19,425 nucleotides of DNA from a virus. A program made the position numbers and the translations under genes. The DNA lies in IMG/VR virus record IMGVR_UViG_3300045988_170948, positions 1-19,425 of that record; one strand, 5' to 3'. Shown one piece after another: positions 2,459 through 19,346 of this stretch (positions are counted from its first letter, which is position 1; every line of letters begins with the position of its first letter). A model generated the notes under the pieces. That model saw nothing but the letters and a program-made list of their open reading frames with translations, made no database searches and had not been told where the DNA came from.

Positions 2459-2480
2459 AGTGAGTAAAATTTATGACACA
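2459..2480 (+). repeat. Degenerate copy of block 2 of the 49-bp intergenic element
   Basis: GTGAGTAAAATTTATGACAC resembles AGTGAGTAAAAATTTGACAC at 19224-19242. It lies directly after the tape measure stop and runs into the hairpin at 2479-2522. Confidence 0.4.
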
Positions 2481-2522
2481 CTACTATGTAAGTTGCTGAT
2501 TATCAGTGCTTATATAGTAGTG
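2479..2522 (+). terminator. Long imperfect hairpin, candidate terminator after the tape measure gene
   Basis: CACTACTATGTAAGTTGCTGAT-T-ATCAGTGCTTATATAGTAGTG forms paired blocks of 9+4+5 bp with one G:U pair and a small internal bulge. T-rich sequence follows (CTATGTCTATTTTATTTTT). Confidence 0.4.
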
Positions 2523-2525
2523 CTA

Positions 2526-2573
2526 TGTCTATTTTATTTTTATTATATAACCTAGTTGAGTAAAAACTTGACA
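2526..2573 (+). promoter_or_regulatory. Conserved intergenic element, copy A (candidate phage-specific promoter for the head module)
   Basis: TGTCTATTTTATTTTTATTATATAACCTAGTTGAGTAAAAACTTGACA aligns with copies at 11683-11731, 19193-19241 and 17446-17397 (-). It lies 79 nt upstream of ATG 2653 and has the same orientation as the downstream genes. Confidence 0.55.
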
Positions 2574-2652
2574 TTTGATAGTATACAAATATATAAAAAT
2601 AGAAGATTGTAACAATATTACATTTTTAAAATAGCTTATATATTAATAAAAA

Positions 2653-3243
2653 ATGGAAAAAATGTATAATGATCTTCCATTATATCAAGCAATTATTGCC
2701 GATGATTGTGATGGAATAGAGTTCGTAGCATTGACCAGTAAACCTGCAACCCAAGTTAATTGGCTTGCTTTTGGGGAATCTCAGAAGTTCTCGATGGATG
2801 AAGAAAAACATATAGTTACTTCTTGTTTAATGGTATGTGATATACCTATATTTAGACGGGATAGTAAAAACGGAGAATATTATATTCAATATGATAAAGA
2901 AACTCTCCGTTTAATGGCTGAAAAAATGATGTATGATAAGAGAACTACTGATGTAAATATTGAACATTTGGAAGATTCGGTAATTCCTGGAATAATTCTT
3001 CAAGAGCTATATATTAAAGATATAGATAGAGGAATTAATCCAGTTGAATTTGCTGATTGTCCAGATGGTTCATTATTTGCTACTTATAAAGTAAATAATC
3101 CTGTTATATGGGATGCAATTAAAGCTGGAAAGTTTAAAGGGTTCTCTATTGAGGGATTGTTTACTTTAGAAAGACAATCTGATGAATATGAGGAACTTAA
3201 AGAGATTCAAAAAATGTTGAGAAAAATAAAAAGAGTTAAATAG
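2653..3243 (+). CDS. Prohead protease, XkdF-like (putative)
   Basis: The N-terminal GIEFVALTSKPATQVNWLAFGE resembles the V-A-L-V-x-x-P-A-x-x-x-x-F-x-A-F signature I recall for the XkdF-type phage serine protease domain. The gene sits upstream of the scaffold and major capsid genes. Ends in TAG. Confidence 0.5.
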   Translation: MEKMYNDLPLYQAIIADDCDGIEFVALTSKPATQVNWLAFGESQKFSMDEEKHIVTSCLMVCDIPIFRRDSKNGEYYIQYDKETLRLMAEKMMYDKRTTDVNIEHLEDSVIPGIILQELYIKDIDRGINPVEFADCPDGSLFATYKVNNPVIWDAIKAGKFKGFSIEGLFTLERQSDEYEELKEIQKMLRKIKRVK

Positions 3244-3244
3244 A

Positions 3245-3856
3245 ATGTATAGTGGAGTTATATATCTAGCAACAAATCTTATAAATGGCAATAAATATGT
3301 AGGACAAACAAATAATTTCTTGAGAAGAAAGAATGAACATAAATACAGTTCTAATCTTACATATTTTCATAGAGCGATTAGGAAATATGGATTCAATAAC
3401 TTTAAATGGGAAATTCTTCAAATCTTTTGTTGTTCTTCTACAGAATTATTGAAAAGACAACTAAATAATGCAGAAATTAAATATATTCAGTTATTTGATA
3501 CATTAAATAATGGTTATAATTTAAATGAAGGTGGAGGTTCTAATACTGGATTTAAACACAGTGAAGAATCTAAACACAAAATGTCTTTAAAACAGTCTGG
3601 AAGAGTATTAAAGGATGAAACAAAATTAAAGTTAAGAGAATGTAGATTGGGAACTAAACAAACTGAACAGCAGAAAGAAAAAGTAAGTAAACGTATAATT
3701 ATGACAGATATTAATGATACTTATATATGCACTTGGAAATCTGCTATGGACGCTGAAAGAAACGGAAATTTTGATCATAGTGCTATTATAAAATGTTGCA
3801 AAAATAAACAAAACTATCATAAAAATTTTAAATTTAAGTATGAACAAATTAACTAA
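3245..3856 (+). mobile_element. Free-standing GIY-YIG homing endonuclease gene 1
   Basis: GVIYLATNLINGNKYVGQT (GIY..YVG), RRKNEH, AEIKYIQLF..NGYNLNEGG and a NUMOD3-like GFKHSEESKHKMS are present. The C-terminal tail is basic and looks DNA-binding. The gene is inserted between protease and scaffold, starting 2 nt after the protease TAG and overlapping the scaffold start by 17 nt. It has no in-frame TGA. Confidence 0.85.
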
Positions 3857-4451
3857 ACTGAGAATCGAACTTAGTAAACTCTTAGCAAAATTTAACGATG
3901 TTAAGACTAGTGCTGGAGTTCTAACTTACGATGGTAGTGAGGATGAGGATCTAAGGGCAGGTATGAGTGTATATACAATGGATACTGATACTGGCGAATA
4001 TGCACCTGCTGCTGATGGTGAGTATGTTACCGAAGATGGCAAAACGATTGTTGTTAAAGACGGTAAAGTAGAGTCCATTACTGATCCTAAAGCTGTAGTA
4101 GATCCTGAAGAAGACAGGACTGTTGAGGTTGATGCTGCTTGTGGAACTAAGAGAGTAAAAGCTGAGGAAGTTGCTGATCCTGCTGTTGAAACAGACGGTG
4201 TTAAAGAAACTGAGACTGATGCAATCGACGCTATTCATCGCGAAATTAATGAGCTCTATGATATTGTAGATAAGCTTGTTAAGAAAGTAGCAGAACTTGA
4301 AGGAAAGTCAGAAGCTACTGAAAAGACTGTAGAAAAAATGAGTAAGATGAGTGCTGCTTTTTCAGCAGAGGAAACACTCGAAAATAAAACAACTGCTCCT
4401 ATAAGTGGAATAGCAGAAATAGATAGAAAGCTTAAAAACTTTATTGGTTAA
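3840..4451 (+). CDS. Capsid scaffolding protein (putative)
   Basis: Acidic protein directly upstream of the major capsid gene. It carries a GEY..EDGKTIVVKDGKV motif and a C-terminal helical, coiled-coil segment (IHREINELYDIVDKLVKKVAELEGK). Confidence 0.55.
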   Translation: MNKLTKLRIELSKLLAKFNDVKTSAGVLTYDGSEDEDLRAGMSVYTMDTDTGEYAPAADGEYVTEDGKTIVVKDGKVESITDPKAVVDPEEDRTVEVDAACGTKRVKAEEVADPAVETDGVKETETDAIDAIHREINELYDIVDKLVKKVAELEGKSEATEKTVEKMSKMSAAFSAEETLENKTTAPISGIAEIDRKLKNFIG

Positions 4452-4472
4452 TTTATAAAATTTTAAATAATT

Positions 4473-5378
4473 ATGGCAAATAGTCCTGTAATGACAACTC
4501 TTCCTGCTTATGTGGAGCAAAGACGTCTCCCTCTTATTAAGGAAGCTGTTTTAAAAGCTAAGAGTGCAAGTTTGTTCAATCTTCAAACAGATATTAAAAC
4601 TGATGCTGCTCTTAACCTGTTATCTACCGATGTTCAGTTCGGTGATGGTCTTACTTGTGGTTGGGATGAGGCTGGAACTCAGACTCTTTCTCAGAGAATT
4701 CTTAAGACTGGTAATATTAAGATTAATATGGCATATTGCGATAAGGCTATGCTGAAATACTGGACTCAGTATGCAGTTAAGGTAGCCGCTGGTCAGAAGA
4801 CTCTTCCTTTTGAAGAGGATTTCGTAAATGCTGTTGTAGAGAACGTAAAAGAGGCTATTGAGGTAGCTATCTGGCAGGGTGATACGGCTTCAGAAACTAA
4901 TAACTTGAAGTATTTTGATGGTCTGCTTAAGATTCTTGCTGCTGATAATGGTACTGTAGATGTAACAATTGCTGGAACATCTGCCTATACTGACATTATG
5001 GCAGTTTATAATGCAATTCCTGAGAAGGTTCTGGATGGTGCTTCTATCTTAGTTGGTGCCGATATGTTCCGTAAGTTCGTAAATGAACTTGTTGAGAAGA
5101 ACTATTTCCACTATAGCGGAGAGAGCCTTAATGGTGAGATTTATCTTCCTGGTTCACAGGTTAAGGTTATTGCTGTTAATGGTCTTAATGGAACTGGTAA
5201 GATTGTTGCTGGTCAGTTAGACAAGAACTTCTTCTATGGTGTAGATATGATGAACGATGAAGAGAAATTCGAATTGTGGTATTCACAGGATTTCCGCGAG
5301 TTCAGATTAGCTATTGAATTTAACGCTGGTGTACAAGTTGCTTTCCCTGACGAAGTAGTATTAGGCGCCAAGGCTTAA
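4473..5378 (+). CDS. Major capsid protein (HK97-fold type)
   Basis: 301 aa, positioned after protease and scaffold. The N-terminal PAYVEQRRLPLIKEAV and the C-terminal NFFYGVDMMNDEEKFELWYSQDFREFRLAIEFNAGVQVAFPDEVV look like phage capsid family proteins. The four Trp visible in the quoted motifs (CGWDE, KYWTQ, AIWQG, ELWYS) are all TGG, and there is no in-frame TGA. Confidence 0.8.
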   Translation: MANSPVMTTLPAYVEQRRLPLIKEAVLKAKSASLFNLQTDIKTDAALNLLSTDVQFGDGLTCGWDEAGTQTLSQRILKTGNIKINMAYCDKAMLKYWTQYAVKVAAGQKTLPFEEDFVNAVVENVKEAIEVAIWQGDTASETNNLKYFDGLLKILAADNGTVDVTIAGTSAYTDIMAVYNAIPEKVLDGASILVGADMFRKFVNELVEKNYFHYSGESLNGEIYLPGSQVKVIAVNGLNGTGKIVAGQLDKNFFYGVDMMNDEEKFELWYSQDFREFRLAIEFNAGVQVAFPDEVVLGAKA

Positions 5379-5418
5379 TTTCAATAGATTTTATTAACTT
5401 ATAAATGATATTGAAATT

Positions 5419-5943
5419 ATGGCTTGTTTAATAACTATCGCAGGAATCACACTTGATTGCCAACCTTCATTAGGTGGTATCAAACAGGTTTGGATTACTC
5501 AGTATTCAGATGTTAAGAGTGTAACGGTTGATCCTGAGAGCAATATGATTTCAGCTATTACTCTTGAGTCTTCAGCTAAATGGTATAACTACCAATTTAG
5601 AAAGGCTACTGGTTCTCTAACCTCAACTTTAAATGTAGATGAAAGTGCTGGTGTTAATTATGTAAGTAATGAGCTTGCTCTTGTATTTACAAAGATGGAA
5701 ACAGCAAAACGAGTAGAGATTGCAGCTTTATCAATTGGTCAGCTTGCAGTTGTTGTTGAAGACAGCAATGGTAAGTATTGGTTCTTAGGTAAAGATGATT
5801 ATGTAAGCGCTTCCGCTGGTACGGGTGTTACTGGTACTGCTAAAGGTGATCAGAATGCTTATACTCTGACACTTTCAACAGATTCAGATTCTTATCCTTA
5901 TGAGTTATCTGCAGAAGCTATCCAAAGCGTTGTAGGTGCTTAA
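5419..5943 (+). CDS. Putative major tail (tube) protein or other abundant virion protein
   Basis: 174 aa. The pattern GGIKQVWI...F..A.....T.......G..Y....L.LVF.......R.....L...QLAVVVEDSNGKYWFLG resembles tail tube families I recall. A strong terminator follows immediately, as expected for a highly expressed structural gene. Confidence 0.4.
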   Translation: MACLITIAGITLDCQPSLGGIKQVWITQYSDVKSVTVDPESNMISAITLESSAKWYNYQFRKATGSLTSTLNVDESAGVNYVSNELALVFTKMETAKRVEIAALSIGQLAVVVEDSNGKYWFLGKDDYVSASAGTGVTGTAKGDQNAYTLTLSTDSDSYPYELSAEAIQSVVGA

Positions 5944-5953
5944 TAACAGAAAG

Positions 5954-5990
5954 AGGGGCGAGTATTAATTTACTTGCCCCTTATTTTGTT
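5954..5990 (+). terminator. Rho-independent terminator
   Basis: AGGGGCGAGTA-TTAATT-TACTTGCCCCT gives an 11-bp stem with one G:U pair, followed by TATTTTGTT. Confidence 0.8.
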
Positions 5991-6034
5991 TATATACCAC
6001 ATAATGAATAATTTATATTTTATAGAAAAATAAT

Positions 6035-8170
6035 ATGGCAAACGAAACTGAAAAGACAATTCTTCCCTATCTTAATGTCCTTGAAGTCGAAACAATAGAT
6101 AAGTCAAATGTGACTAAAGTTATTGTTATTGACAAGGATGATGAAGTTAAGGTTATGGATGGTTCTCAGTTAGGATCAAGTAACTATCAAGATCTTCAAT
6201 TTAAGCCTGAAATCAATGGGGTTGAATTAAATGGAAATATTCCTTCTAAAGAATTAGGAATTCCTTCTATTGAAGATATTGACAATCAAATTACAGAGAA
6301 ACTTATTGACTATCCAACTAAAGAAGAAGTTACTGTAGAAATAACTGAAGCTACTTCTGGCAAACAAGATATATTAGTTCAAGGTAATGGTATAGTAATT
6401 GAGGATAATACTATTTCAGCAGATTATTCTACAATTAATAATAAGCCATTTTTAAATGGAGCAGAGCTTATTAATCCTACAGTAATAGTTCCATCAATTC
6501 AGATTAAAGCTATCCCTGATAAAGTAACAATAGCTCCAATATTTGGAAATCAAACTGGAGACGCTGAAGAACTTCCTGTTTATAATACTGAAACTAATTC
6601 TGCAGGTCTAATTAATGCTGATTTATATGCTCAGTTATCAGATAAATATACAAAGGCTGAGATTGACAATCTAAATGCAGAAATTAATAAAGCTATAAAT
6701 GCAAAACAGGGAACATTAACGGCAGGAGCTAATATATCTATTGTTGATAATGTAATATCTGCATTCCAGAATCACTTCTTCTTAAATTTAGATATTAATG
6801 ATCCAGATAGACAGTTAGAAATATATAACTTCATTAGAAGTAATATGGACTTCTATTTATTTGGGCAGATTACATATAATGAAGATACAATAGTAGTTCC
6901 AATGACTGTAGTAGAGCATACTAATACTATTGATTTATATGGATACTATTTTAAAGATGATGGGGTATTAGTAACTATTAATGCTATTATAGTTAATAAT
7001 GGCCAAATGACTGTTAAGACCACAGAAGTTGATCTTACTAATAAAGGTTATACTAAAGATGAAGTAGATGAGAAACTTGCAACTAAGCAAGGTGTATTTA
7101 CTCCACAAGCTCCATTAGCTTTTAATGAAGATAAATCCCAATTATCTGTAGATTTATCTGGATACCAACCAGTTGGTGATTATGCTTTAAAGAGTGATAT
7201 TCCAACTAAAGTTAGTGAGCTTACTAATGATTCTAACTTTGTAACTGAAGCAGAGGTTTCTGGAGATTTAGCAGGTAAAGCAGATAAGACTTATGTTGAT
7301 GAGCAACTTGCTACTAAACAGCCTGTAGGAGATTATGCAACAAAAACTGAACTTGCTGGTAAAGCTGATTCTTCTGTAGTAGAATCTTTATCTACTCAAG
7401 TAGCAACTAATACTTCAGATATATCAATTATTAAAACAAAGCAAGAAGAAGATGGAGATAAGATTGATTCTCTTGATAAAGAGATGGCTACTAAGCAAGA
7501 TTTACTTGTAAGTGGAACTAATATCAAAACAATCAATAGTCAATCTTTACTTGGAGAAGGTAATATAGTAATTGATAGTGGTTCTAATATTCCATATCTA
7601 TTTATAAATTCCTCAACCCATCTTTCTGGAGATTTCGCTGCTGTTAAGAATGCTATAGCTAATAAAACACCATTTGAGCTTTATTATGTAAATATTCTAG
7701 GTTATGGTGATATAGCAGCTCCAGAAGTATGTTTTGTTTCAGGAGAAAATATTCAAGCTACTTTCCATTTTGAAAGTACGACAGCTAATCATACTGTAGT
7801 TCAAACTACTATTACTCCAACTGGAGTATCTGCTGATACTAGTTATCATAGTTATCAAGAACAGTTAGTTTCTGGTACTAATATAAAGACTATTAATGGT
7901 GAAAGTATTTTAGGAGAAGGTAATCTTGAAATATCTGGAGGTGGAGGGACTACTGACTATACTCAGTTAACAAATAAACCTCAGATTAATTCTGTTGAGT
8001 TATCTGGCAATAAGAGTTTATCAGATTTAGGTATTCAGCCTGCTGGAAACTATATTGAAGCTGGAACTGGAACCCAACCTCAAATAAATACGATTACTGT
8101 TCTAACTCAAGCAGAGTATGATAGTTTATCAACTAAAGATCCTAATACACAATATTTAATTGTAGAATAA
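6035..8170 (+). CDS. Tail fibre protein with internal repeats
   Basis: 711 aa. A repeated 24-aa motif L(L/V)SGTNIKTIN(S/G)(Q/E)S(L/I)LGEGN occurs at nt 7502-7573 and 7864-7933. Repeated KP.ING.EL.GN.....LGI and TK.EL..KAD motifs are typical of phage fibres. No TGA. Confidence 0.8.
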   Translation: MANETEKTILPYLNVLEVETIDKSNVTKVIVIDKDDEVKVMDGSQLGSSNYQDLQFKPEINGVELNGNIPSKELGIPSIEDIDNQITEKLIDYPTKEEVTVEITEATSGKQDILVQGNGIVIEDNTISADYSTINNKPFLNGAELINPTVIVPSIQIKAIPDKVTIAPIFGNQTGDAEELPVYNTETNSAGLINADLYAQLSDKYTKAEIDNLNAEINKAINAKQGTLTAGANISIVDNVISAFQNHFFLNLDINDPDRQLEIYNFIRSNMDFYLFGQITYNEDTIVVPMTVVEHTNTIDLYGYYFKDDGVLVTINAIIVNNGQMTVKTTEVDLTNKGYTKDEVDEKLATKQGVFTPQAPLAFNEDKSQLSVDLSGYQPVGDYALKSDIPTKVSELTNDSNFVTEAEVSGDLAGKADKTYVDEQLATKQPVGDYATKTELAGKADSSVVESLSTQVATNTSDISIIKTKQEEDGDKIDSLDKEMATKQDLLVSGTNIKTINSQSLLGEGNIVIDSGSNIPYLFINSSTHLSGDFAAVKNAIANKTPFELYYVNILGYGDIAAPEVCFVSGENIQATFHFESTTANHTVVQTTITPTGVSADTSYHSYQEQLVSGTNIKTINGESILGEGNLEISGGGGTTDYTQLTNKPQINSVELSGNKSLSDLGIQPAGNYIEAGTGTQPQINTITVLTQAEYDSLSTKDPNTQYLIVE

Positions 8171-8171
8171 T

Positions 8172-9293
8172 ATGAATATTAGAGATGATTTAAAAACATT
8201 TTATGTAGGTGACAGACAAGGTACTGCTATTTATGTCGGCAGTACCAAAGTCTGGCCTATCAATCCTTGTAATCCACAAATAGTTACAGTTGCTAATCCA
8301 GTTCCTCAAGGTACTACAATAGTTGATCCTTGCAGTTATGTATTTAGCAGTTATGATGGAACTATAAATGATATACAAAGGGATTGAATGGGTAGAGGAT
8401 CTGACCTTACTTCTACAGTAATTAGTTTTACTGCTGATTTAAGTGAATTAGCCCTTAATATAGATGGTGTACCTCTTTGTAGTATTATAGGTTCTGCTCA
8501 AACATATGCAGATGTAAAGTTAAATAGTGGAGATTTAAGTAGAAAAGGAGGGTTTTTTAAAACATCTCATTTTGATCTAAATAACCAGGAGATTACTAAT
8601 CTTAATGAAGCATATGGAAGATGGTCTAGTGAATCTCAATTTTGGGGTCAAACAATACATAGTGCCACTTTATCTAATGTTAAAATACCTACAACTACTA
8701 AAGAAGTAAGTGCAAATTATTTATTTATTGGAGTAAAAATAGATAATAATGATTTCTCTGTAATGAATAATTTTCAAAATCTTGTATTAGTAGATCCAAA
8801 ATGGGCATTTGCAGAGACAGCTGACGGAGCTACTAATATAGATAATATAACGATTAATATTCCCTTTAAAGGAGATTGTAATCATATGTTTCATAGAGCA
8901 TTATATCTAACAACTATTCCAAGTAATTTTATCTTTACTGGAATTACAGATATAAGCTATATGTTTAGTACTTGTAGTAGATTAACAGCTACACCAGAAA
9001 TAGATTGTCATCTTGTTACAGATTGTACTAGTTTTGCTGCATCTTGTCCAGAATTAGTCACTGTAGGAGCTTTAAATGGATTAGGAGAAGGTTTTAAAAC
9101 TGCTAGTCTTCTATATTTTGCTCAATCTCCAAATTTATCTACGGATTCATTACAAACTATAGCAGAATCTATTGGTGAGTGTATATTTAGTGGTTCTGCT
9201 ATATCCTTTAAATCTACTGCATATGATAAACTTACAGATGAACAGAAATCATTAATCGCTTCAAAGAATTGGAGCATAAATCGAGTTGCATAA
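8172..9293 (+). CDS. LRR-type (BspA/DUF285-like) receptor-binding candidate 1, 373 aa if TGA 8385-8387 is Trp
   Basis: ORF-track 8172-8387 and 8388-9293 share a frame and are joined by GAT-TGA-ATG-GGT. The C-terminal part carries ..MF....L..IP-type leucine-rich repeats (CNHMFHRALYLTTIP, ISYMFSTCSRLTATPEI). The C-terminus LTDEQKSLIASKNWSI is paralogous to the end of 10710-11678. Confidence 0.6.
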
Positions 9294-9295
9294 TT

Positions 9296-9532
9296 ATGAA
9301 AATTGAAATTAAAGAAAAATATAAAGTAGTTAGTCCAGAAGAAGGTTATATACTTACTAACTATAAAGAAGGAATGGATATTAAATTATACAGTTCATTT
9401 ACTGAATGTATCTGTCCTTTAAGTTGCGATTTAGAGCATCTATCAGAAGTCTCTTTAGATAAGGATGCTGAATATAAAGAATTAGCTATTAAAGCTTCTA
9501 AAGAGTATGAGGAATCAATAAAAGTTAGATAA
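9296..9532 (+). CDS. Hypothetical protein (78 aa)
   Basis: The ATG at 9296 sits in a TAA-TT-ATG junction with the upstream stop. The ORF-track start at 9269 would overlap the upstream gene. No recognisable motif. Confidence 0.5.
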   Translation: MKIEIKEKYKVVSPEEGYILTNYKEGMDIKLYSSFTECICPLSCDLEHLSEVSLDKDAEYKELAIKASKEYEESIKVR

Positions 9533-9534
9533 TT

Positions 9535-10194
9535 ATGATTATACTTAAGAATACTAAAAATACACAAACTTTCTATGTAAGTAAGAAATGTGGTATTGAA
9601 TCTGGACAACTTCCTGTTGGTTCTTATACTAAGATTGAAGCAGATGAAAGATTCCAACCTAAAGGTAATTACATTTCTGAAGAGAAAGCAGAAGAGTTAA
9701 TTAATACTAAAGTAACAGAAAGTATTGAAGATCAAGTTCCTCCTTTAGTAGATCAATCTATAGATGCTAAGCTTGTTCCAATTAATACTGAGATTACTAA
9801 TCTTAAAGGGGAAGTTGAGGAGTTAGAAACTTCTAAGATGGAAGTATTCCAAGCTAATCAACCTCTATCTTTACATAGAAATGGAGAAGGTTTGCAACTA
9901 TCTGTAGATTTAAGTAATTATGCAACTAAAGCAGAAATTCCTGATACTAGTGATTTTGCTACTAAAGAAGAGCTTACAGCTGTAGAGAATAAGATTCCTG
10001 ATGTATCTGGATTAGCTACTAAAGATGAAGTTGCACTTAAAGCAGATAAAAGTGAGTTATCAAACTATGTAACTACAGATGCATATAATACAAAGATGAC
10101 AGAGTTAGATGGAGAAATCTCAGCAATTCAAGCTCAGATTGGTAATATTTCAACTACTCTTGATACAATTAATGGTGAAATTCCAAATGAATAG
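9535..10194 (+). CDS. Tail fibre-like protein (coiled-coil and short repeats)
   Basis: Repeats [49 protein letters not shown] resemble those of the 711-aa fibre. The start sits in a TAA-TT-ATG junction. Ends in TAG. Confidence 0.6.
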
Positions 10195-10708: not shown

Positions 10709-10709
10709 T

Positions 10710-11678: not shown

Positions 11679-11682
11679 TTTT

Positions 11683-11731
11683 TGTCTATTTTTATTTTTT
11701 CTTAGTACTTTGAGTGAGTAAAAACTTGACA
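11683..11731 (+). promoter_or_regulatory. Conserved intergenic element, copy B
   Basis: TGTCTATTTTTATTTTTTCTTAGTACTTTGAGTGAGTAAAAACTTGACA starts 4 nt after the upstream TAA and ends 103 nt upstream of ATG 11834. Confidence 0.55.
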
Positions 11732-11758
11732 TTAAAGGAGGCTTAGGTCTCCTTTAAT
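11731..11758 (+). other. Perfect 10-bp hairpin abutting element copy B (5' leader structure or terminator)
   Basis: ATTAAAGGAG-GCTTAGGT-CTCCTTTAAT. The first base is the last A of TTGACA. It is followed by TATTTTAAT. Confidence 0.5.
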
Positions 11759-11803
11759 TATTTTAATACATTAGTAAATTGGTTTATATTTTAAGAAAAA
11801 GAT

Positions 11804-11832
11804 ATGTAAAAGTAATGTAAAACTATGTAAAA
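11804..11832 (+). repeat. Three tandem ATGTAAAA units (start-stop minicistrons) directly upstream of ATG 11834
   Basis: ATGTAAAA occurs at 11804-11811, 11815-11822 and 11825-11832, spaced 11 and 10 nt apart. Confidence 0.6.
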
Positions 11833-11833
11833 T

Positions 11834-12226
11834 ATGAATTATACTTTATTAATGCAAAATACAACTACTAAAGAAGTTTATACATTTGATCTTGAAAATC
11901 AGAATTATTCTGAGAATATCTACTATAAGTTTGATATTACACTTCAAGAAGGAATGAGAGACGGTGAATATCAATATATTTTATTTACTAATCCAAATAA
12001 ATTTCAAGTTATAGTTGATGTAAACAATCCATTTAGATCAGAGTTATATGGCAATCCAGTTATTCTGGTTACATATAATAATACTCTTACTAATGGTACT
12101 CAGATATTAGTTGCTGGTAAACCAATACCTATATTGGGAACAGGATTAATAAGAATTGGAGATTATGAGAATAATAATTATCAATACGACAAATCTAATA
12201 CATACGTAAGTTATGAGCGAAAATAA
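11834..12226 (+). CDS. Hypothetical protein (130 aa)
   Basis: Intact ORF ending in TAA, and the first gene after element copy B. No recognisable motif. Its end overlaps the portal start by 14 nt. Confidence 0.5.
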   Translation: MNYTLLMQNTTTKEVYTFDLENQNYSENIYYKFDITLQEGMRDGEYQYILFTNPNKFQVIVDVNNPFRSELYGNPVILVTYNNTLTNGTQILVAGKPIPILGTGLIRIGDYENNNYQYDKSNTYVSYERK

Positions 12227-13304
12227 AACAAAAGTTCAGTTAAGTGCTATTGATCCATTTATTGCAAGTAATATCGTATTACCTACAGAAACTAAAGTAA
12301 GAGGAAAAGATTATGTAATGTGGGGAGAAGATAACAAATATCCATTATATCTATGAGATTTATACTTAAATGTTGCTACTCTCCAATCTATTATTAATGG
12401 TTCTGCTGACTTTATTGTTGGTAATGATGTTAAATGTAATGCTCCAGGATTTGAAGTAGTTGTAAACAAGAAAGGTGAAACAATAGTTGATATAATGAGA
12501 AAAATCACTATTGATAAGATGATATTTGGAGGTTATGCTATCCAAGTAATTAGAGATATGCTTGGAAGAGTTGCAGAGATCTATCATATTGATTTTATGA
12601 ATGTAAGGTCAAGCGAAAAGAATGATATATTATATTATGCAACTGATTGGACAGCTTGGTCTGTAAAAGCTATAAAATATCCAAAATTTGGAGCTGCTGA
12701 TGAAAATCCAGCTAGTATATTTTATAATAAAGGTTATATAACAAGAGGAGTATATCCTATTCCTGTTTATGGAGCTGCTATTTTATCTTGCGAAACTGAG
12801 AAAAATATTAATGAATTCCATTTAAATAACATCAATAATGGATTTATGGGTAATCTTATTATTAACTTTAATAATGGGGAACCTACAGATGAAATTAGAG
12901 AGGAGATTGAGAGGAATATTAATGAGAAGTTCTCTGGTTATCAGAATGCTGGCAGAATATTGATTTCATATAATGCAGATGAGGCAAATAAGACTACTAT
13001 TGAAAGATTAGATTCTGATGATTTTGATGAGAAATATCAATCGTTATCTGAGAGAACAAGAGATCAAATATTCTGTGCCTTCAGAGCTAATCCTTCGTTG
13101 TTCGGTTTAAACTATAGCTCAGGATTTAATGAAAATGAGTTTAATGAAGCATTTAAGCTATATAATCGTACTTTTGTACGCCCAATACAATCAGAAATTT
13201 GTGACTCATTTGATAAAATCTTCGGCATTAAGAATAGTATTACTATTGAACCATTTAGTTTAACTCCAAAAGGAATGTCAGACAATGCAGAAAATGTTGA
13301 ATAA
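12213..13304 (+). CDS. Portal protein (364 aa, one TGA=Trp)
   Basis: ATG 12213 is in frame with ORF-track 12495-13304 through TGA 12354-12356. MSENKTKVQLSAIDPF...VMWGEDNKYPLYL-W-DLYLNVATLQSIINGSADFIVG together with FHLNNINNGFMGNLIINF matches the N-terminal and core pattern I associate with phage portal proteins. Confidence 0.7.
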
Positions 13305-13947
13305 TTATACAGTGTACTGCCATAAGAATATAGCTGATAATAAATTATATTTTGGAATAACATCACTTACTTTAAATAATAGATGGGGAACTAAAGGTCA
13401 AGGTTACAAGAATAATCTTTATTTTAGCAGAGCAATTAAAAAATATGGTTGAGATAATTTTGAGCATATTATAATTAGAGATAATCTTCCAGAAGCTTGT
13501 GCTAAGACTTTAGAAAAGATTCTGATTTATAAGTATAATACTAGAAATCCAAAATATGGGTATAATTTAACTGATGGAGGAGACGGTACTTGTGGATATT
13601 CTTTTTCACAAGATTATAAAGATAGTCTTAGAATTATAAGATCAGGAGAAAATAACTCATTTTATGGTAAACAGCATTCAGATGAAAGCAAGCGTAAAAT
13701 GAGGGAGGCAAGATTAGGCAAAACTCCTTGAAATAAAGGTATGAAACTCTCAGATAAAGAAAAACAACTAATTTCAGAACGTCAGTGCAAAAAAGTATAT
13801 AAGTATGATTTAGATGGTAATTTTATTTGTGAGTATAAATCAGCTAAGGAAGCTGGAGAGAAGAATAATGTAGATTCTTCTAGTATATCTAGATCTTGTA
13901 GAAAAAATAAACCCTGCAAAAATTATAAATATTATTATGGAATATAG
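13294..13947 (+). mobile_element. Free-standing GIY-YIG homing endonuclease gene 2 (two TGA=Trp)
   Basis: MLNNYTVYCHKNIADNKLYFGITS (GIY..YFG); AIKKYG-TGA(13450)-DNFEH; LEKILIYKYNTRNPKYGYNLTDGGDG; NUMOD3-like HSDESKRKMREARLGKTP-TGA(13729)-NKG. The gene overlaps the portal end by 11 nt and the next gene's start by 11 nt. Confidence 0.85.
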
Positions 13948-14614
13948 AAATGTACTATTAATATCTGAAGATTATATAAAATCAGAATCCAATTTAGACA
14001 ATAATGTTTCTGGTAAATATCTTCAGTCAGCAATTAAACTTGCACAAGATATTGAGCTTCAGTCATTAATTGGAACTAAGCTCTTAGAAAAGATTCAGAA
14101 ATTAGTAATTGATTGAAAAGACCCAAATAAACCAGTTCATCCAATAGAACCTCCTATTTATGATCCTACTTCTATAGATGACCCAGAAAATCATAGATAT
14201 AAAGAATTGCTAGATTACTATATTCAGCCTTATTTACTTTATCAAGTATTAAGTGAGATTACTATACCTATTTCGTTTAAGCTTAGTAACTTTGGTGTTA
14301 TGAGGACTGATGATGAGAAAGATTTAACTTCTGATATTAATCAAGTTAATCTTATTAAGAAATATTATAGAGATAAAGCAGATTTCTTTAAAACAAGATT
14401 ACAAAATTGGGTAATTACATATTATAATGATTTTCCTGAATTGTATTCTTATAAACCTCTTAAAGATATGTATCCAAATATGTATTCAAGTTCATCTTGC
14501 ACTATTTGGTTAGGTGGAGCTAGAGGTAAAGGTTGGAGATATAATTCTTGTGAAGGTCCTCTGCAAAGAGCTTATGATTTCCCTTCAAGTGATAACAATA
14601 AAAAGAGTAAGTAA
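13937..14614 (+). CDS. Putative head-tail connector/adaptor protein (225 aa, one TGA=Trp)
   Basis: ATG 13937 is in frame with ORF-track 14207-14614 through TGA 14114-14116. The N-terminus ISEDYIKSESNLDNNVSGKYLQSAIKLAQDIELQSLIGTKLLEKI resembles head-tail adaptor N-termini. The position after the portal gene supports this. Confidence 0.4.
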
Positions 14615-14615
14615 G

Positions 14616-15041
14616 ATGACGTATTTTGAATTAATAAACAATTTAAAAGCTTGTGCTCTTGAAGAACCCAATATTAATTTTGTAGGAAGTAAGGATATAT
14701 ATGAACTTAATAGTATCCCAACTATTGAATATAATGTATTTTATATAACTCCAAATACATTTAATATGGATGAGGATACTATTACTTACTCTTTAAATCT
14801 CTATTTTATAGCAAGATGGGATGAGACTGATAATAATCAGCTTGAAGAGCAATCAGCTGGAATATTAGCATTAACTAATATAATTAACCGATTTAATAAC
14901 CAATATCCAGAAGTTGATATTTCTTATCCTTTAATTTTTACTCCATTTTATCAGAAGTTCAAAGATATTTGTACTGGAATATTTGTTAGAGTTGATTTAG
15001 CTGTAGACAACACTCTGGGTACTTGTTCTGATAATATGTAA
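14616..15041 (+). CDS. Hypothetical virion or morphogenesis protein (141 aa)
   Basis: ATG 14616 lies 2 nt after the upstream TAA. The ORF-track start at 14514 would overlap the previous gene by 100 nt. No motif recognised. Confidence 0.5.
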   Translation: MTYFELINNLKACALEEPNINFVGSKDIYELNSIPTIEYNVFYITPNTFNMDEDTITYSLNLYFIARWDETDNNQLEEQSAGILALTNIINRFNNQYPEVDISYPLIFTPFYQKFKDICTGIFVRVDLAVDNTLGTCSDNM

Positions 15042-15694
15042 TGGAAAATAAATTAAACTGGTTTGGAAAGGTATTAGAATGAGTAGATAAATATGGACTG
15101 TGGAAAATAATTAAAGGTGGATTTGGATTTATATTTATTTCTTATGTAATAATTATAAGTACTAATCCAGGAATAATATATGATAAAGTTGTAAGTTATA
15201 TAGAAACAGTTCATAATACTAATCAAGTAATACGACAAGAAGCAGATCTTAAGGTTAGATATATTCTTAAAGATCTTTTAAATGATACGAATGCAGATAG
15301 AGCTTGAGTTATTGAGTATCATAATGGCACTTCAGGATTAGGAGGACTTCCATTCACTTATGGAATTATGAATAGTGAAGAAACAGAACCTGGAGTTGCT
15401 CCAGTTTCAAGTCATTATAAAGACTTCCTATTATCTGATTATTTATTTATATTAGAAACATCTAAAAAAGGAGGATGATTTGGAGATGTTGAAGATATAA
15501 AGGAATTAGATAGAAGAATGTACTATACATTTAAATCTAATGATGTTAATAAGATTGCAATATTCTATTTAAAATCAGAAGATAGAGATATTGGAATTTT
15601 AGGCTTATCTTATTGTGATAATGAGATGCCAGTTGATACTTGAGTAAAACTAAGAGATGCAGGAATTAAAGTAAGTATAATTTTAAATAAATAA
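15041..15694 (+). CDS. Membrane-anchored protein (217 aa) with four TGA=Trp codons; possible GAF-like globular domain; first gene of the lysis cassette
   Basis: Absent from the ORF track because TGA at 15080, 15305, 15476 and 15641 splits it into pieces under 60 aa. It begins at a TAATG junction with the upstream gene and ends in TAA 15692-15694. It has one N-terminal hydrophobic helix (GGFGFIFISYVIIISTNPG). The C-terminal part (ADRAWVIEYHNG...KIAIFYLKSEDRDIGILGLSY) loosely resembles a GAF fold. Confidence 0.65.
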
Positions 15695-15697
15695 GTT

Positions 15698-15859
15698 ATG
15701 AAATATTGGATGAAATATTTAATAGCAATAGTAATTATAATCTTAGTATTTTTAATGGTAAAAGTAATTCCATTTTGGATTACATTAGTACTCATAGCAC
15801 TTGGTGCAGGATGTCATTTATTTTACCGTTATACTATGCTTAAAGATATTATTAAATAA
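15698..15859 (+). CDS. Holin candidate (53 aa, two TM helices)
   Basis: MKYWMKYLIAIVIIILVFLMVKVIPFWITLVLIALGAGCHLFYRYTMLKDIIK has two hydrophobic helices and a charged C-terminus. It lies directly upstream of the endolysin and shares a TAATG junction with it. Confidence 0.55.
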   Translation: MKYWMKYLIAIVIIILVFLMVKVIPFWITLVLIALGAGCHLFYRYTMLKDIIK

Positions 15860-16308
15860 TGAAATATTTTACTATTAGTGAATTAACAAGATCTGATACA
15901 GCTTCTATTAAGAAGATAGATAATACTCCAAATAAAGAGATTACTGAACACCTTATAGAGTTAGTCGAGAAACTTTTAGACCCATTAAGAAGTGATTGGG
16001 CAGAGTATTGTGATGTTAATCGGTTGGGAAATCCAGCAATAAGTGTGAATTCAGGTTATAGATGTAATAAGCTTAATAAAGCTGTAGGAGGATCTTTGAT
16101 ATCTGCTCACCTAACAGGATATGCGGCAGATATAATTCCAAGTAACGGCCAAATGAAAGAATTTCAGGTTTGGATTACTGAAGCTATTGAAAAGTATGAT
16201 TTTGACGAATGCTTTATAGAAAGAAGTAGTACTGCTCACTGAGTGCATATTGCTTTATATAGTATTAAAGGATTACAACGAAGAAAGAAAGGTAATTTAT
16301 ATGTATAG
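15859..16308 (+). CDS. Endolysin, zinc peptidase M15 (Peptidase_M15_3-like), one TGA=Trp
   Basis: [28 protein letters not shown] matches the SxHxxGxAxD metallopeptidase core. The frame continues through TGA 16240-16242 (STAH-W-VHIALY) to TAG 16306-16308. Confidence 0.85.
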
Positions 16309-16891
16309 TGTATATGTTCATTTAAACAAGATTAATGGTAAGAAATATATTGGAATTACTTGTAAGAAGCCAGAGATACGATGGGCAAACGGTCTTGGCT
16401 ATAGAAAACAGCCATTTGAAAATGCTATTAAAAAATATGGATGAGATGGATTTGAACACATTATAGTTAAAGAAGGATTACCAGAAGCTTGTGCTAAAAC
16501 ATTAGAGAAGATTCTTATTTATAGATATAATACTCGTAATCTGAAATACGGTTATAATGCTACAGACGGAGGTGATGGCACATTAGGAATTACATTTACT
16601 CAAGAAAGAAAAGACAAGATAAGAGCTAAAAGTATTGGAAGACATCCATCAGAAGAAACTAGGAAAAAGATGAGTGATAGCCAGAAAGGAAGAGATTTGA
16701 GCTATTTAAATAATTCTTTTGGCAATAATCCAAGAGCTAAGAAAGTAGGTGCATATAAAGATGATATTCTTATTAAAGAATATGATTGTGCAGTTAGTGC
16801 TTCTTTAGATGTCGGAGTTCATAAAAATTCTATTGCTAAAGCAATTAGAGAAGGTTATAAAGTAAAAGGATTCAAGTGAAGATATGTTTAA
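16301..16891 (+). mobile_element. Free-standing GIY-YIG homing endonuclease gene 3 (two TGA=Trp), paralogue of gene 2
   Basis: [20 protein letters not shown]; AIKKYG-TGA(16442)-DGFEH; LPEACAKTLEKILIYRYNTRNLKYGYNATDGGDG; ..KVKGFK-TGA(16877)-RYV then TAA 16889-16891. It overlaps the endolysin end by 8 nt. Confidence 0.85.
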
Positions 16892-16899
16892 TAAAAAAG

Positions 16900-16926
16900 A
16901 AAAGGAGGGCAAATAACCCTCCTTTT
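16900..16926. terminator. Bidirectional rho-independent terminator between convergent modules
   Basis: AAAAGGAGGG-CAAATAA-CCCTCCTTTT gives a perfect 10-bp stem. An A-run lies on the left and a T-run on the right. It sits between + strand stop 16891 and - strand stop 16930. Confidence 0.85.
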
Positions 16927-16929
16927 TGT

Positions 16930-17070
16930 TTATTCCATTATCTCAAATAATTTCTCATCTTTAGGTATTAATTCTCCTGTTTGTAAGTCTACTAAAAACT
17001 TACTATTTTCTGGTATTACATATACATAATACACTCCATTTATACATACTTTATAGGTTTGGTATTTCAT
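16930..17070 (-). CDS. Small hypothetical protein (46 aa)
   Basis: MKYQTYKVCINGVYYVYVIPENSKFLVDLQTGELIPKDEKLFEIME*. The ATG lies 1 nt after the upstream stop. The ORF is too short for the ORF track. Confidence 0.4.
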   Translation of the reverse strand: MKYQTYKVCINGVYYVYVIPENSKFLVDLQTGELIPKDEKLFEIME

Positions 17071-17071
17071 A

Positions 17072-17212
17072 TTAATCAGTATATGTTGCATTAGTAATTT
17101 CTGGTTTTGGCATTTCTTCTACTTCTTCCCAAACTAAACCTCTATTCTGGTTTTCTAGTTGAACTATTCTGTATTCTAGTTCTTCAAGCTTTTTAAATAA
17201 ATGATCATCCAT
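17072..17212 (-). CDS. Small hypothetical protein (46 aa, coiled-coil-like)
   Basis: MDDHLFKKLEELEYRIVQLENQNRGLVWEEVEEMPKPEITNATYTD*. It is tightly packed, 2 nt after the upstream stop. Confidence 0.4.
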   Translation of the reverse strand: MDDHLFKKLEELEYRIVQLENQNRGLVWEEVEEMPKPEITNATYTD

Positions 17213-17214
17213 AA

Positions 17215-17376
17215 TTAATCAAATTTAGAAATAAACATATAATCTTTATTTTTTAATACTTTATCTATAATATCACCAAATCTTTTAGTAGCCTCTTTAC
17301 ATTCGAGCATTCATTTATCCAATTCTTTAATATACTCTTCTGTTTGTTTTATTGTTTCTTTAATATCACTTTCCAT
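17215..17376 (-). CDS. Small hypothetical protein (53 aa if TGA 17313-17311 is Trp; otherwise 21-aa and 31-aa ORFs)
   Basis: MESDIKETIKQTEEYIKELDK-W-MLECKEATKRFGDIIDKVLKNKDYMFISKFD*. The ATG lies 21 nt downstream of element copy D. Confidence 0.4.
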
Positions 17377-17396
17377 AATTAAAATATTTTAATAAA

Positions 17397-17446
17397 TGTC
17401 TATTTTTTACTCAACTAATGTATATAGATAAAAATAAAAATAGACA
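17397..17446 (-). promoter_or_regulatory. Conserved intergenic element, copy D (on the - strand)
   Basis: The - strand reads TGTCTATTTTTATTTTTATCTATATACATTAGTTGAGTAAAAAATAGACA. It begins 2 nt after the helicase TAG and points at the three small - strand genes. This copy has perfect 11-bp terminal inverted repeats (TGTCTATTTTT / AAAAATAGACA). Confidence 0.55.
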
Positions 17447-17448
17447 TA

Positions 17449-19167
17449 CTAATTTTTAAAGACATACTTTTTACCTATAATAGTATATCCATAAGATCTG
17501 TTTCCATTCACTGATTTTTTAGTTACCTTAACTTCATAATATTTTGTAATATCAGTAGCTTTAGCATTAGTTTTATTAACTAAATCATAAGCTTTTTGTA
17601 GTATCTTTTTAATATCAGTATTAGAATACCACATACCTAAAGTTATATCTTTATTAAGTTTATTTGCTACTTTATTATCTACAGATTTATCTGAAGTTTT
17701 AATAAGTTCATCTTTTATTTTAGTAATACAGTATTTTAGAGTGGCCATTTTATTGAATCCAAGTTTAGTAATAGCATCCATTAACCAAGGGTATTTAATA
17801 AGAGCATCATCTAATTTTGGGGTGTTTACCTTATATAAGGTTTCATATTCCTCTCTTACTTCTTTAATTATATCTTTAAATGCTTTTGTTTTAGTATTTA
17901 GATCTATTTTTATAGAATTATCATATTGTTCTACCACTTTATTAAATCCTTTATTAATATATTCCTTAGAAAGATTAGCTCTAGCAGAATACAGTCCCCT
18001 AGATACTTTAAAATTAAATAAATCAATTTTAGCCATATTAGGGTCAAATTCAAATACATCATCCCAATTTAATTTAATGTATGCATCAGAAGTAAATTCT
18101 CTAAGTTTCTTTTTAGCTATCTCTGGAAGTTTATTGTATGCTTCTACAGCAATTTTAGTTTCTTCAATATTCTGGATATTAAGCTTTTTAAATTCTTCAT
18201 AAGATATATCAGCATATCTTGTTGTAGAATAAATGTGAGTTATCCAATTAATATATTTACTATTTCTAATTCTACCAGCAATCTGCTGTATAGAAGTTGA
18301 TATATCAAGTAATGTATTAGCTTTACTTGGATCAGATATAATTATTATCCTTCCATTTTCATCATAAATATCTGAACCTTCAAATACAGTTGAAGTTAAT
18401 AAGTTTATTTTCTTAGGTTCATCTAAGACTGTTGAATTAGGAATTGACAGTTTAGTTTTATTGTTTTTGGAATATATAACTCTGGTATTATTAGATGTTA
18501 ATTTGGCTTTCTTAATAAGGTTCTTTATAAAGTCTACTGAATTAACGAATATGTAGGCGTTACCTTCAACCTGTCCGTTTAAAAATCCATTTATAAGTTT
18601 AATAGTAGAAGCTTCTACATTATCACATTTAACAGTTTGCACTTTTACATCTATAACATCATCCCATTCCTGCTTTACTAATTCTAAATCTTTTAATTCA
18701 TCTAATACAAACTCTTCCTCTAAAGGTGTTGCGGTCATAAATGTAAAATTACCAAATAATTTATAATATTTAAGCACTGATTGAATAGCAGAGCTTCTAA
18801 AGCTATACTGATTAAAGAGAATATGATATTCATCAATTAAAATGCTAAACTCTTTAGGATTAATTGCAGAAATAACTTTATAAAGAGAATCATAGGTAAC
18901 AATGATTTTAGGGCATTTAACACTATCTACATAATCTTTAATCTCTTTAATAGTAACACCAGCATAAACTCCAAATATCTTCTCAGTACGTCTTTCATTT
19001 GGATATTGTTGAAGTTTATTTTCAACTAAGCTAGTAAATGGAACACAAATAACATAAGGCTTATTGCATTCAATTGCCATTGAAGTTCCTCCACATCCAA
19101 CTTTTCCTTTATCAAATAAACAGTTAGTTGGCAACTCATTAATAATTTCATTTAAATATGTTTTCAT
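17449..19167 (-). CDS. Superfamily 2 DExH-box helicase (572 aa)
   Basis: Motif I-like GKVGCGGTS, motif II LIDEYH, motif III MTATP and motif VI QQIAGRIRN are present. The five Trp visible in the quoted motifs (QEWDD, INWITH, LNWDD, YPWLMD, GMWYS) are TGG, and there is no in-frame TGA. Ends in TAG. Confidence 0.75.
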   Translation of the reverse strand: MKTYLNEIINELPTNCLFDKGKVGCGGTSMAIECNKPYVICVPFTSLVENKLQQYPNERRTEKIFGVYAGVTIKEIKDYVDSVKCPKIIVTYDSLYKVISAINPKEFSILIDEYHILFNQYSFRSSAIQSVLKYYKLFGNFTFMTATPLEEEFVLDELKDLELVKQEWDDVIDVKVQTVKCDNVEASTIKLINGFLNGQVEGNAYIFVNSVDFIKNLIKKAKLTSNNTRVIYSKNNKTKLSIPNSTVLDEPKKINLLTSTVFEGSDIYDENGRIIIISDPSKANTLLDISTSIQQIAGRIRNSKYINWITHIYSTTRYADISYEEFKKLNIQNIEETKIAVEAYNKLPEIAKKKLREFTSDAYIKLNWDDVFEFDPNMAKIDLFNFKVSRGLYSARANLSKEYINKGFNKVVEQYDNSIKIDLNTKTKAFKDIIKEVREEYETLYKVNTPKLDDALIKYPWLMDAITKLGFNKMATLKYCITKIKDELIKTSDKSVDNKVANKLNKDITLGMWYSNTDIKKILQKAYDLVNKTNAKATDITKYYEVKVTKKSVNGNRSYGYTIIGKKYVFKN

Positions 19168-19192
19168 AGTTGTAATAATTTTGGTTATTAAT

Positions 19193-19241
19193 TGTCTATT
19201 TTTATTTTATCTATACACATCAAGTGAGTAAAAATTTGACA
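19193..19241 (+). promoter_or_regulatory. Conserved intergenic element, copy C (points rightwards, away from the helicase)
   Basis: TGTCTATTTTTATTTTATCTATACACATCAAGTGAGTAAAAATTTGACA lies in the divergent region right of the helicase start. Confidence 0.5.
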
Positions 19242-19258
19242 CCTTAATGTTAAAAAGT

Positions 19259-19277
19259 GGCAGGATTTTCACCTGCC
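19259..19277. other. GC-rich hairpin; on the - strand it is followed by a T5 run (terminator or attenuator-like)
   Basis: GGCAGG-ATTTTCA-CCTGCC. On the - strand the hairpin is followed by ACTTTTTAAC. On the + strand no T-run follows. Confidence 0.45.
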
Positions 19278-19314
19278 TAGAAGTAGTAGAATTACTTGTT
19301 TTATTTTGATACTA

Positions 19315-19346
19315 CAAATATACAACAATTTTTCTCAATCTCCAAA
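19315..19346 (-). promoter_or_regulatory. Bacteroidota-type promoter (proximal) directed at the helicase gene
   Basis: The - strand reads TTTG (19346-19343), then 20 nt, then TATATTTG (19322-19315). This matches the -33 TTTG / -7 TAnnTTTG consensus. Confidence 0.55.

Follow-up and report, generated by a model that had tools for sequence, protein, structure and literature searches.

An intergenic palindromic repeat in a gut phage

Almost nothing is known about how transcription and replication are organised in small Bacteroidota phages without polymerases of their own. Here we analysed a stretch of virus DNA of 19,425 nucleotides (IMG/VR record IMGVR_UViG_3300045988_170948, positions 1 to 19,425; the window in what follows) that carries a repeated intergenic element, which an earlier note on the same DNA had read as a promoter. 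The element is an imperfect palindrome of 49-50 bp, with inverted ends of 11-13 bp and a G+C content of 16-30%. Our analysis shows that it belongs to a family of intergenic palindromes that are constrained in structure and mostly sense-oriented and that include an ancient helicase-linked copy, and we class it as an intergenic structured repeat without assigning it to a named family. The best reading is that of a structure-dependent cis element, whose function we infer from the comparisons described below; its reading as a recognisable promoter is weak.

Exact-protein look-ups found contigs containing the window, of 29.5-32.8 kb, in many gut metagenomes, and the gene order of the whole genome (~31 kb) was joined from such contigs. 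It starts with the rightward early genes g79, g144, g102, g81, g109 and g150, followed by the terminase gene and g219. Copy E of the element separates these from g159, g726, g1147 and the tape measure gene; copy A precedes the head and fibre genes, and copy B the genes that run from the portal through lysis. The opposite strand carries small genes, copy D and the helicase-like gene, after which come copy C and a divergent promoter region. PHROG scans of the window recognised a prohead protease, a capsid-like protein, tail fibre-like proteins, a portal and an endolysin, together with three GIY-YIG and one HNH homing endonucleases, and the tape-measure label of the 780-aa protein is an assignment from size and position, made without a family match. 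The 572-aa minus-strand protein has no PHROG family match and is weakly helicase-like (DEYH motif; Pfam Helicase_C_2, E=0.05); it had no PDB sequence match, and only distant matches, of at most 32% identity, to deposited phage isolates. Neither the whole window (megablast) nor the capsid protein (protein search) matched any deposited phage.

The window has 30% G+C, and a clean, dense gene map of it was obtained only with TGA read as sense: its genes hold 18 in-frame TGA against 36 TGG codons, and none of them stops at TGA. TGA is read as sense, with tryptophan as its likeliest meaning, in early and late genes alike (window, L001, L017, L022 and L024; L numbers are our handles for related loci). 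The helicase-like gene has five TGG and no TGA. ARAGORN found no tRNA, suppressor or other, in the window or in the loci that jointly span the ~31-kb genome. The early promoters described below look Bacteroidota-type, and Bacteroidota are not known to use code 4. Since TGA is sense all round the genome, also in the genes that lie right of copy C, and never terminates a gene, the association that had been drawn between the element and TGA-containing genes is uninformative.

Four copies of the element lie in the window, at the positions originally given for them, and they are far beyond chance. Block 1 of the motif (TGTCTATTTTTATTTT) is matched without error by B, C and D and with two mismatches by A, while block 2 is matched four times against 0.10 expected, a number reached by none of 200 shuffles. 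Searching the window with a family covariance model built from 21 distinct members returned precisely A to D (50-67 bits, E<=3e-7), with no other window match better than E=0.3 save a reverse-strand echo of B. Copy A (2526-2573, plus strand; 50.3 bits) lies at the junction between the tape-measure and prohead protease genes. Copy B (11683-11731, plus; 66.6 bits) begins 4 nt after the stop codon of a 322-aa gene. Copy C (19193-19241, plus; 61.8 bits) starts 25 nt away from the minus-strand helicase-like gene, as measured from that gene's start codon (19167), and faces in the opposite direction; it is the copy found conserved in relatives. Copy D (17446-17397, minus; 58.6 bits) begins 2 nt after the stop of that same gene and lies 20 nt before the next small minus-strand open reading frame (ORF); its 11-bp inverted ends are indeed perfect. 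What had been described as a degenerate block 2 at 2459-2480 (plus; AGTGAGTAAAATTTATGACA) is present as a relic right half that directly follows the tape-measure stop and is conserved in relatives. The ~31-kb genome has a fifth copy, E, which falls outside the window, past its right end; it is located between g219 and g159 and begins 2 nt after the upstream stop codon. At least one assembled contig (L216) starts inside copy E and ends at copy B, a sign that short-read assemblies of this phage may break at the repeat.

No copy lay inside a gene, either in the window, searched with a motif model as the earlier note had proposed, or among ~110 matches in related loci. The statement that the element marks every module boundary went too far: the map with TGA as sense has seven non-coding gaps of 35 nt or longer; four hold a copy, and those at 5379-5418, 5944-6034 and 16892-16929 do not, the last two holding terminators only. 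Likewise, the claim that the element is always oriented with the downstream genes stands for the window lineage, in which all five copies point with the genes that follow, but not for relatives, since a sister clade carries E in the reverse orientation. In the window lineage, A, B, D and E lie in the sense orientation. The element is the phage's only conserved non-coding signal apart from the three promoters of host type and some terminators.

Pairing of the arms and the neighbouring hairpins

Relatives were gathered via the helicase-like protein and via the genes adjoining B, E and A. From the outside in, the element consists of a clamp of 5-7 bp, free in sequence but complementary; near-invariant inner arms (left, T5-A-T3-4; right, (G)AGT-A5), whose pairing on the sense strand includes two conserved U.G wobbles; and an AT-rich centre of ~8-20 nt with a (T)A(G/C)TAC or TATAC motif. 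The window group and the 78% lineage (lineages are labelled by percentage identity) carry the arm sets TGTCTA/TAGACA, TGTCAG/CTTGACA and TGTCAA/TTGACA. Elsewhere the arms are TGTAAC/GTTACA (71-76% lineages), TGCTGG/CCCAGCA (L226) or GAGGGT/ACCCTC (L024), and additional sets occur in Mariniphaga, Odoribacter and Dysgonomonas-type genomes, for example (GA)CGGATTTTT/AAAAATCCG(TC).

A 15-bp stem was tested against 21 distinct copies, aligned with MAFFT without any fitting to structure. Paired cells amounted to 91.4%, falling to 46-65% when the partner was slid by one to three columns, and compensatory double changes occurred at six pairs (20 cells); none of 500 shuffles attained any of these measures. 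The inner nine pairs (T5AT3 against GAGTA5) showed no compensatory change. The side remark of the earlier note, that the inverted ends could form a hairpin or bind a dimer, thus fared well: the ends covary while staying complementary. As expected from the conserved U.G wobbles in the inner nine pairs, the forward (sense) strand outfolds its complement in 23 of the 26 distinct copies, with a mean of -11.05 kcal/mol against -6.73. In the better copies the predicted stems are of 15-20 bp including the U.G pairs (copy E of L001, -14.9; A of L120, -17.7; C of L226, -16.9 kcal/mol), and the best copies form near-continuous hairpins of ~20 bp with z scores of -4.5 to -7.4.

Three observations bear on the origin of this symmetry. 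Differently armed but internally complementary copies coexist in single genomes (B versus D/E in L001; C versus E in L226), helicase-like proteins that are 99% identical adjoin different C arms (L049/L051; window/L029), and the helix-turn-helix (HTH) of g81, the only sigma-region-4-like protein found, does not change between lineages whose arms differ. The symmetry is thus most simply explained by base pairing, since a single sequence-reading dimer would not explain mixed, matched arms in one genome. The arm ends probably have no reader, while the invariant inner arms or the centre may have one that recognises their sequence. The 99%-identical helicases beside different arms led us to reject the idea that this protein reads the lineage-specific arms. 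Rfam gave no family match on the element; its sole match at E<=1 was sraA (30 bits, against a gathering threshold of 56) at 16852-16934. The site of this sub-threshold match holds a bidirectional terminator-type hairpin (16899-16927) between the convergent plus- and minus-strand gene blocks.

The three hairpins previously reported beside the copies, at 11731-11758, 19259-19277 and 2479-2522, are all present, although the scan rates the one after C as a minus-strand and not a plus-strand terminator. That at 11731-11758 (plus) abuts B and is an intrinsic-terminator-like hairpin of 12 pairs with a T run (tail TATTTTAATA). At this junction the element and terminator hairpins fold side by side (-24.3 kcal/mol, z -3.95), and at E the element hairpin likewise folds beside a terminator-type hairpin with a T-rich tail (z -5.6); the latter was not flagged by the strict tail rule of the terminator scan and is called terminator-type from its fold and T-rich tail only. 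The long hairpin at 2479-2522 (plus), an inverted repeat with one mismatch in 44 nt in all relatives, stands between the relic half and A and is followed by A's T-rich arm; in the predicted fold, A's left arm pairs with the upstream relic arm across it. The hairpin at 19277-19259 (minus) is GC-rich (GGCAGGTGAAAATCCTGCC then ACTTTTTAAC), scores as a minus-strand terminator and lies between the leftward early promoters and C.

Those promoters are of Bacteroidota type. The canonical one at 19315-19346 (minus; TTTG-N20-TAtaTTTG) lies outside the repeat and is aimed at the helicase-like gene, and the second (19393-19423, minus) also has a full -33/-7 motif. Together with one rightward full -33/-7 promoter, just past the right end of the window, they are the only canonical host-type promoters in ~29 kb; the divergent early region that holds all three is situated right of C. 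The helicase strand of the window thus reads early promoter(s), terminator-type hairpin, element and helicase gene, an order that is identical in L239 and that L266 has from the terminator on.

Occupancy, inversion and ancestry in related genomes

Copies B and D vary in their presence. B is absent from the same junction in sister lineages, the 71% lineage having the terminator only, and D is confined to the lineage of the window; it is missing from L226 (80% lineage) too, a locus whose contig stops short of the B junction. The downstream genes and their leader sequences are nonetheless conserved in the 71% lineage, which has neither B nor D. At its junction, B with its terminator behaves as one of two alternative cassettes.

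Copy E differs in orientation. Across the 71-76% clade it is inverted in place, in at least seven genomes with three flank types, between flanks that are collinear and ~93% identical. Once flipped, the interior of the inverted copy agrees with other copies at 20-22 of 26 positions, compared with 15-17 of 26 unflipped. A recombination breakpoint at E was rejected, since only the 1+1 and 2+2 combinations of flank types were observed.

Sites A, C and E, by comparison, are syntenic across lineages at 71% helicase identity, and the orientation of C is kept in lineages down to 58%. Counterparts of C with other arms are found in L226, L024, L266 and many Bacteroidota genomes. The architecture of clamp, T-run, A-run and complementary clamp, spanning 42-68 bp, was detected in 41 of 99 distinct regions upstream of helicase homologues, against a chance level of five matches in 155 kb of helicase coding sequence. 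Such C-like elements persist to ~30-40% helicase identity, where the flanks have diverged beyond alignment. Dysgonomonas, Prevotella, Tannerella and related genomes have a conserved CGGAT4-5...A4-5TCCG core with covarying outer bases, in two to three tandem copies, while the window has a single element upstream and one downstream of its helicase-like gene. The tandem arrays are made of palindromic units of ~60 bp (CGGATTTTT...CTATAAAGAA...AAAAATCCG), repeated two to three times at about -250 to -80 relative to the helicase homologue, and their spacers carry CAGAT and are iteron-like (L233, L235, L236, L239, L240, L249, L250 and L262).

Other loci show traffic between the copies. The element is duplicated or partly duplicated in L072 and L226, loop types are swapped between sites (A in the 71% lineage looks like E in the window lineage, and the E of the former like the A of the latter), and L226, with two arm types, and L298 are mosaic genomes. 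These comparisons show that copies exchange sequence among themselves and that one has been flipped in a sister clade. C looks like the ancestral copy, beside the helicase-like early gene, and A, E and especially B and D look secondary, B and D being apparently more recent. Scanning viral contigs for TGTAAC-N28-36-AAAAAGTTACA gave at least 120 single matches, which were mostly unrelated and uninformative.

Candidate functions

We favour, with a probability of about one in three, the reading that these dyad-symmetric repeats of ~50 nt act as RNA stem-loops in processing or stability, placed at the ends of operons and at intercistronic junctions. The element would be transcribed at the end of each module's mRNA, and the transcript would fold, just past the stop codon, into an A/U-rich stem-loop of 15-20 bp, adjoined at B and E by a terminator hairpin. 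The stem-loop could then signal processing or confer stability, much as the RNase III sites of phage T7 or bacterial REP hairpins do. What favours an RNA stem-loop over the alternatives is its place in the transcripts, its wobble pairs and the fact that A, B, D and E are sense-oriented.

Among known systems, T7 RNase III sites and REP hairpins are those that the element would most resemble in the way it works. The T7 hairpins (R0.3 to R18.5) are a family of intergenic stem-loops of ~50-60 nt that resemble one another, follow stop codons, point in the direction of transcription and delimit segments of long polycistronic transcripts. The predicted stems here are shorter (15-20 bp, with wobbles and bulges) and A/U-rich, C lies outside any known sense transcript, and one copy is inverted in the sister clade. 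Enterobacterial REP/BIME sequences are imperfect palindromes at gene 3' ends, often before terminators; they are transcribed, occur in either orientation, are lineage-specific in sequence and evolve in concert. REPs, however, are GC-rich, chromosomal and RAYT-mobilised and carry a GTAG motif, whereas the element is phage-borne, with 16-30% G+C, no GTAG and no transposase seen. The PeSL cassettes of T4-like phages are short stem-loop regulatory repeats at gene-block boundaries, tied to indels and modular shuffling (PMC2839356, PMC4122927). The present element also sits at shuffled block boundaries, but it is a long A/T-rich hairpin without a recognisable promoter, whereas PeSLs combine a recognisable early promoter with a short G/C stem-loop. 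Iteron or AT-rich origins beside initiator-helicase genes (SaPI ori-rep, plasmid rep-ori) share with it the linkage to a helicase gene, the AT-rich core and, in some relatives, the tandem arrangement; here, by contrast, the arms are uncoupled from the helicase sequence and copies are dispersed round the genome. Finally, integron attC sites are imperfect palindromes that directly follow ORFs and are recognised in folded, single-stranded form; their sequence varies while their structure is conserved. No integron integrase is found among the called genes of this phage, however, and its modules are multi-gene operons; the attC cores RYYYAAC/GTTRRRY are unmatched beyond AAC/GTT in one lineage, the ends in the window lineage being TGTCWA/TWGACA.

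Several observations weigh against an RNA stem-loop. Its main weakness is C, which would be transcribed antisense and folds weakly: no promoter was found that reads C in its better-folding orientation, and the leftward early promoters would give an antisense transcript of it. In the window, the predicted fold is weak for both A (-5.2 kcal/mol; z -0.7) and C (-7.1 kcal/mol; z -1.2), and the structures predicted for them in context differ from the canonical hairpin. The left arms of the window strain are homogenised to TGTCTATTTTTATTTT at the cost of pairing in B, which hints at a sequence-level constraint or at gene conversion, and the inner arms, by their lack of compensatory change, imply a sequence-specific reader as well. 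An A/U-rich stem beside a good terminator adds little obvious protection. Moreover, the tandem iteration 5' of the helicase gene in the Dysgonomonas-type relatives looks more like a DNA site.

The element itself does not qualify as an intrinsic terminator, since its stem is A/U-rich and no T run follows; the intrinsic-terminator scan flagged the neighbouring hairpins at 11731-11758 and 19277-19259 instead. We also rejected a local antiterminator, in which element and terminator stems would compete: at B and E there is no obvious complementarity between them and the hairpins fold independently, and in the 71% lineage A is an element without a terminator and B a terminator without an element.

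The close rival, a possibility that deserves to be taken seriously, is a structural site at the DNA level: a cruciform or single-stranded DNA hairpin with an AT-rich, meltable centre, used for origin-like unwinding, priming or loading together with the helicase-like protein, the extra copies being secondary entry sites in a phage without a polymerase or primase of its own in sight. Indeed, Pfam annotations on the contigs and PHROG scans revealed neither enzyme in the ~31-kb genome. Such a site would account for the enrichment of the clamp architecture upstream of helicase homologues, for the iteron-like tandem copies and the duplications in L072 and L226, for the tolerance of a flipped copy and for the orientation of C, which local transcription does not explain; the order of promoter, terminator, element and helicase gene also recalls transcript-primed origins. 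Nevertheless, five dispersed origins in 31 kb would be unusual, the conserved U.G wobbles suit RNA better than DNA, and the supposed partner is only weakly helicase-like. Helicase and arm sequences are, in addition, uncoupled, so recognition would have to be structural or confined to the invariant inner arms. A narrower version, which is rather doubtful, is that the element, as a cruciform or single-strand hairpin with the invariant T5A/TA5 inner stem, is a structure-specific DNA signal that works with the conserved 572-aa DExH-type protein as a dispersed replication start or in hairpin-dependent transcription or priming, in a phage that shows no polymerase, primase or tRNA and nonetheless reads TGA as sense.

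The promoter that the earlier note had considered the most economical reading, a middle/late one for a phage-encoded or phage-modified RNA polymerase, we now think improbable. In the form considered here, host RNA polymerase would be redirected by a phage factor, possibly with a dyad activator site, and the downstream hairpins would be 5' stem-loops or terminators overcome in a Q-like manner. We keep this explanation because ~25 kb of rightward genes without host-type promoters needs explaining: with three such promoters in ~29 kb, the rightward blocks require some other signal or read-through. The uniform direction of the five copies and the persistence of C's orientation to 58% helicase identity fit a promoter, as do the invariant AGTAAAAA and the (A/C/G)TAC motif at fixed places. 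At B and E, however, the element sits between the stop codon and the terminator-type hairpin, on the wrong side of the terminator; sister lineages keep the downstream modules without B or D, and the inverted E occurs in at least seven genomes of one clade. The would-be -35 varies freely and covaries with the far end, which a promoter does not predict, and the TTGACA end is replaced in relatives by GTTACA, CCCAGCA or ACCCTC.

Known promoter types gave no better fit. On direct reading, as the earlier note had seen, the element is not a standard sigma-70 promoter and only A has an acceptable -10; promoter-like sigma-70 sites were not enriched (91 found, 112.6 expected). The absence of a Bacteroidota fit also held, as the full -33/-7 motif is missing in and beside A, B, D and E. 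Two partial motifs were discarded: a -7-like TATATTTTA after each terminator, taken as a late promoter, was not significant (four matches, 2.7 expected), and a -7-like TAATTTTG located 10 nt upstream of C (19176-19183) was not conserved in other lineages and was treated as a chance match.

The proposed search for a phage RNA polymerase or sigma factor was also largely negative. In the ~31-kb genome, the Pfam contig annotations and PHROG scans revealed no RNA polymerase and no complete sigma factor with both regions 2 and 4; the only candidate is the 81-aa g81, which scores above the Pfam Sigma70_r4_2 cut-off (26.4 versus 25.7 bits) and whose HTH is, as stated above, identical across arm types. 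A polymerase role for the 726-aa or the ~1,147-aa protein is unlikely: they have no family matches and are located among tail genes. The neighbour of g81, g102 (~100 aa), had been a suspected counterpart of sigma region 2; it is all-helical, with no Pfam or PDB sequence match, and its confident AlphaFold2 (AF2) model (pLDDT 85) had no PDB fold match, sigma-like or other. The two form a conserved pair of small, overlapping early genes (L001, 8408-8945, minus; L024, 8835-9315, plus), with the order swapped in the 58% lineage (L024). We rejected the idea that together they make a split sigma factor of the extracytoplasmic function (ECF) type, given that they are separate genes, in reversed order in L024, and that g102 has neither a sequence nor a fold match.

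It is equally unlikely, in our view, that the element is a selfish or recombination-prone palindrome, like a miniature inverted-repeat transposable element (MITE), a REP or a PeSL-like 'boundary cassette', kept by copying, gene conversion and module exchange. The terminal inverted repeats of 11-13 bp and the filled and empty B and D sites among close relatives are what a MITE would show, and the inversion at E, the shuffled loop types, the homogenised left arms, the mosaics L226 (two arm types) and L298 and the alternative cassettes at B all speak of mobility. Yet the flanks of A to E share no direct repeat, so there is no target-site duplication, and no transposase, RAYT or integrase is seen among the called genes of the genome. 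The synteny of A, C and E and the lack of a breakpoint at E do not suit a mobile sequence either, and the persistence of C-like elements beyond the alignment of their flanks argues for purifying selection.

The weakest candidate, and a very improbable one, is a palindromic operator on duplex DNA for a dimeric phage regulator (a repressor, an activator or a stoperator-like roadblock): the dyad symmetry with arm centres ~37-40 bp apart, the arms usually shared by copies of one genome and the CGGA...TCCG core conserved across genera in one clade would suit it, but arm ends differ within one genome and between genomes with 99%-identical neighbour proteins, no regulator was found whose sequence tracks the arms, and pairing explains more simply why variable positions stay complementary.

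If the element proves to be a processing site or a terminator-associated stabiliser, it would extend the known kinds modestly; an origin or promoter defined by a hairpin would be more notable, as a new multi-site kind common to a large group of Bacteroidota phages and prophages. The element is carried by a widespread gut phage of ~31 kb, and a version of it lies beside the same helicase-like gene in phages or prophages of many Bacteroidota genera. A structure-dependent hairpin in place of a late promoter shifts which experiments make sense, and the clamp / T-run ... A-run / clamp' pattern offers a compact annotation motif for these genomes.

Some further features of the window deserve mention. 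The leftward promoter at 19315-19346 is followed within ~60 nt, ahead of the helicase-like gene, by the terminator-type hairpin with its T run (19277-19259), and the two could form an attenuator or a gene for an RNA of ~55-60 nt. Immediately upstream of the start of g130 (11803-11833), (A)TGTAAAA is repeated three times at a spacing of 10-11 nt (GATATGTAAAAGTAATGTAAAACTATGTAAAATATG), and this array is conserved with variation in relatives. Homing endonuclease genes crowd the 19 kb (3245-3856, 10109-10708, 13285-13947 and 16250-16891), and a 209-nt repeat (13432-13640 and 16424-16632) corresponds to two paralogous GIY-YIG genes. Endonuclease content varies among near-identical genomes: L001 and L017 carry a GIY-YIG gene between B and g130, and the window does not. 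Directly 5' of the endolysin gene, an apparent intergenic gap is occupied by a 53-aa ORF (15698-15859, plus) with a hydrophobic core, which probably encodes a holin.

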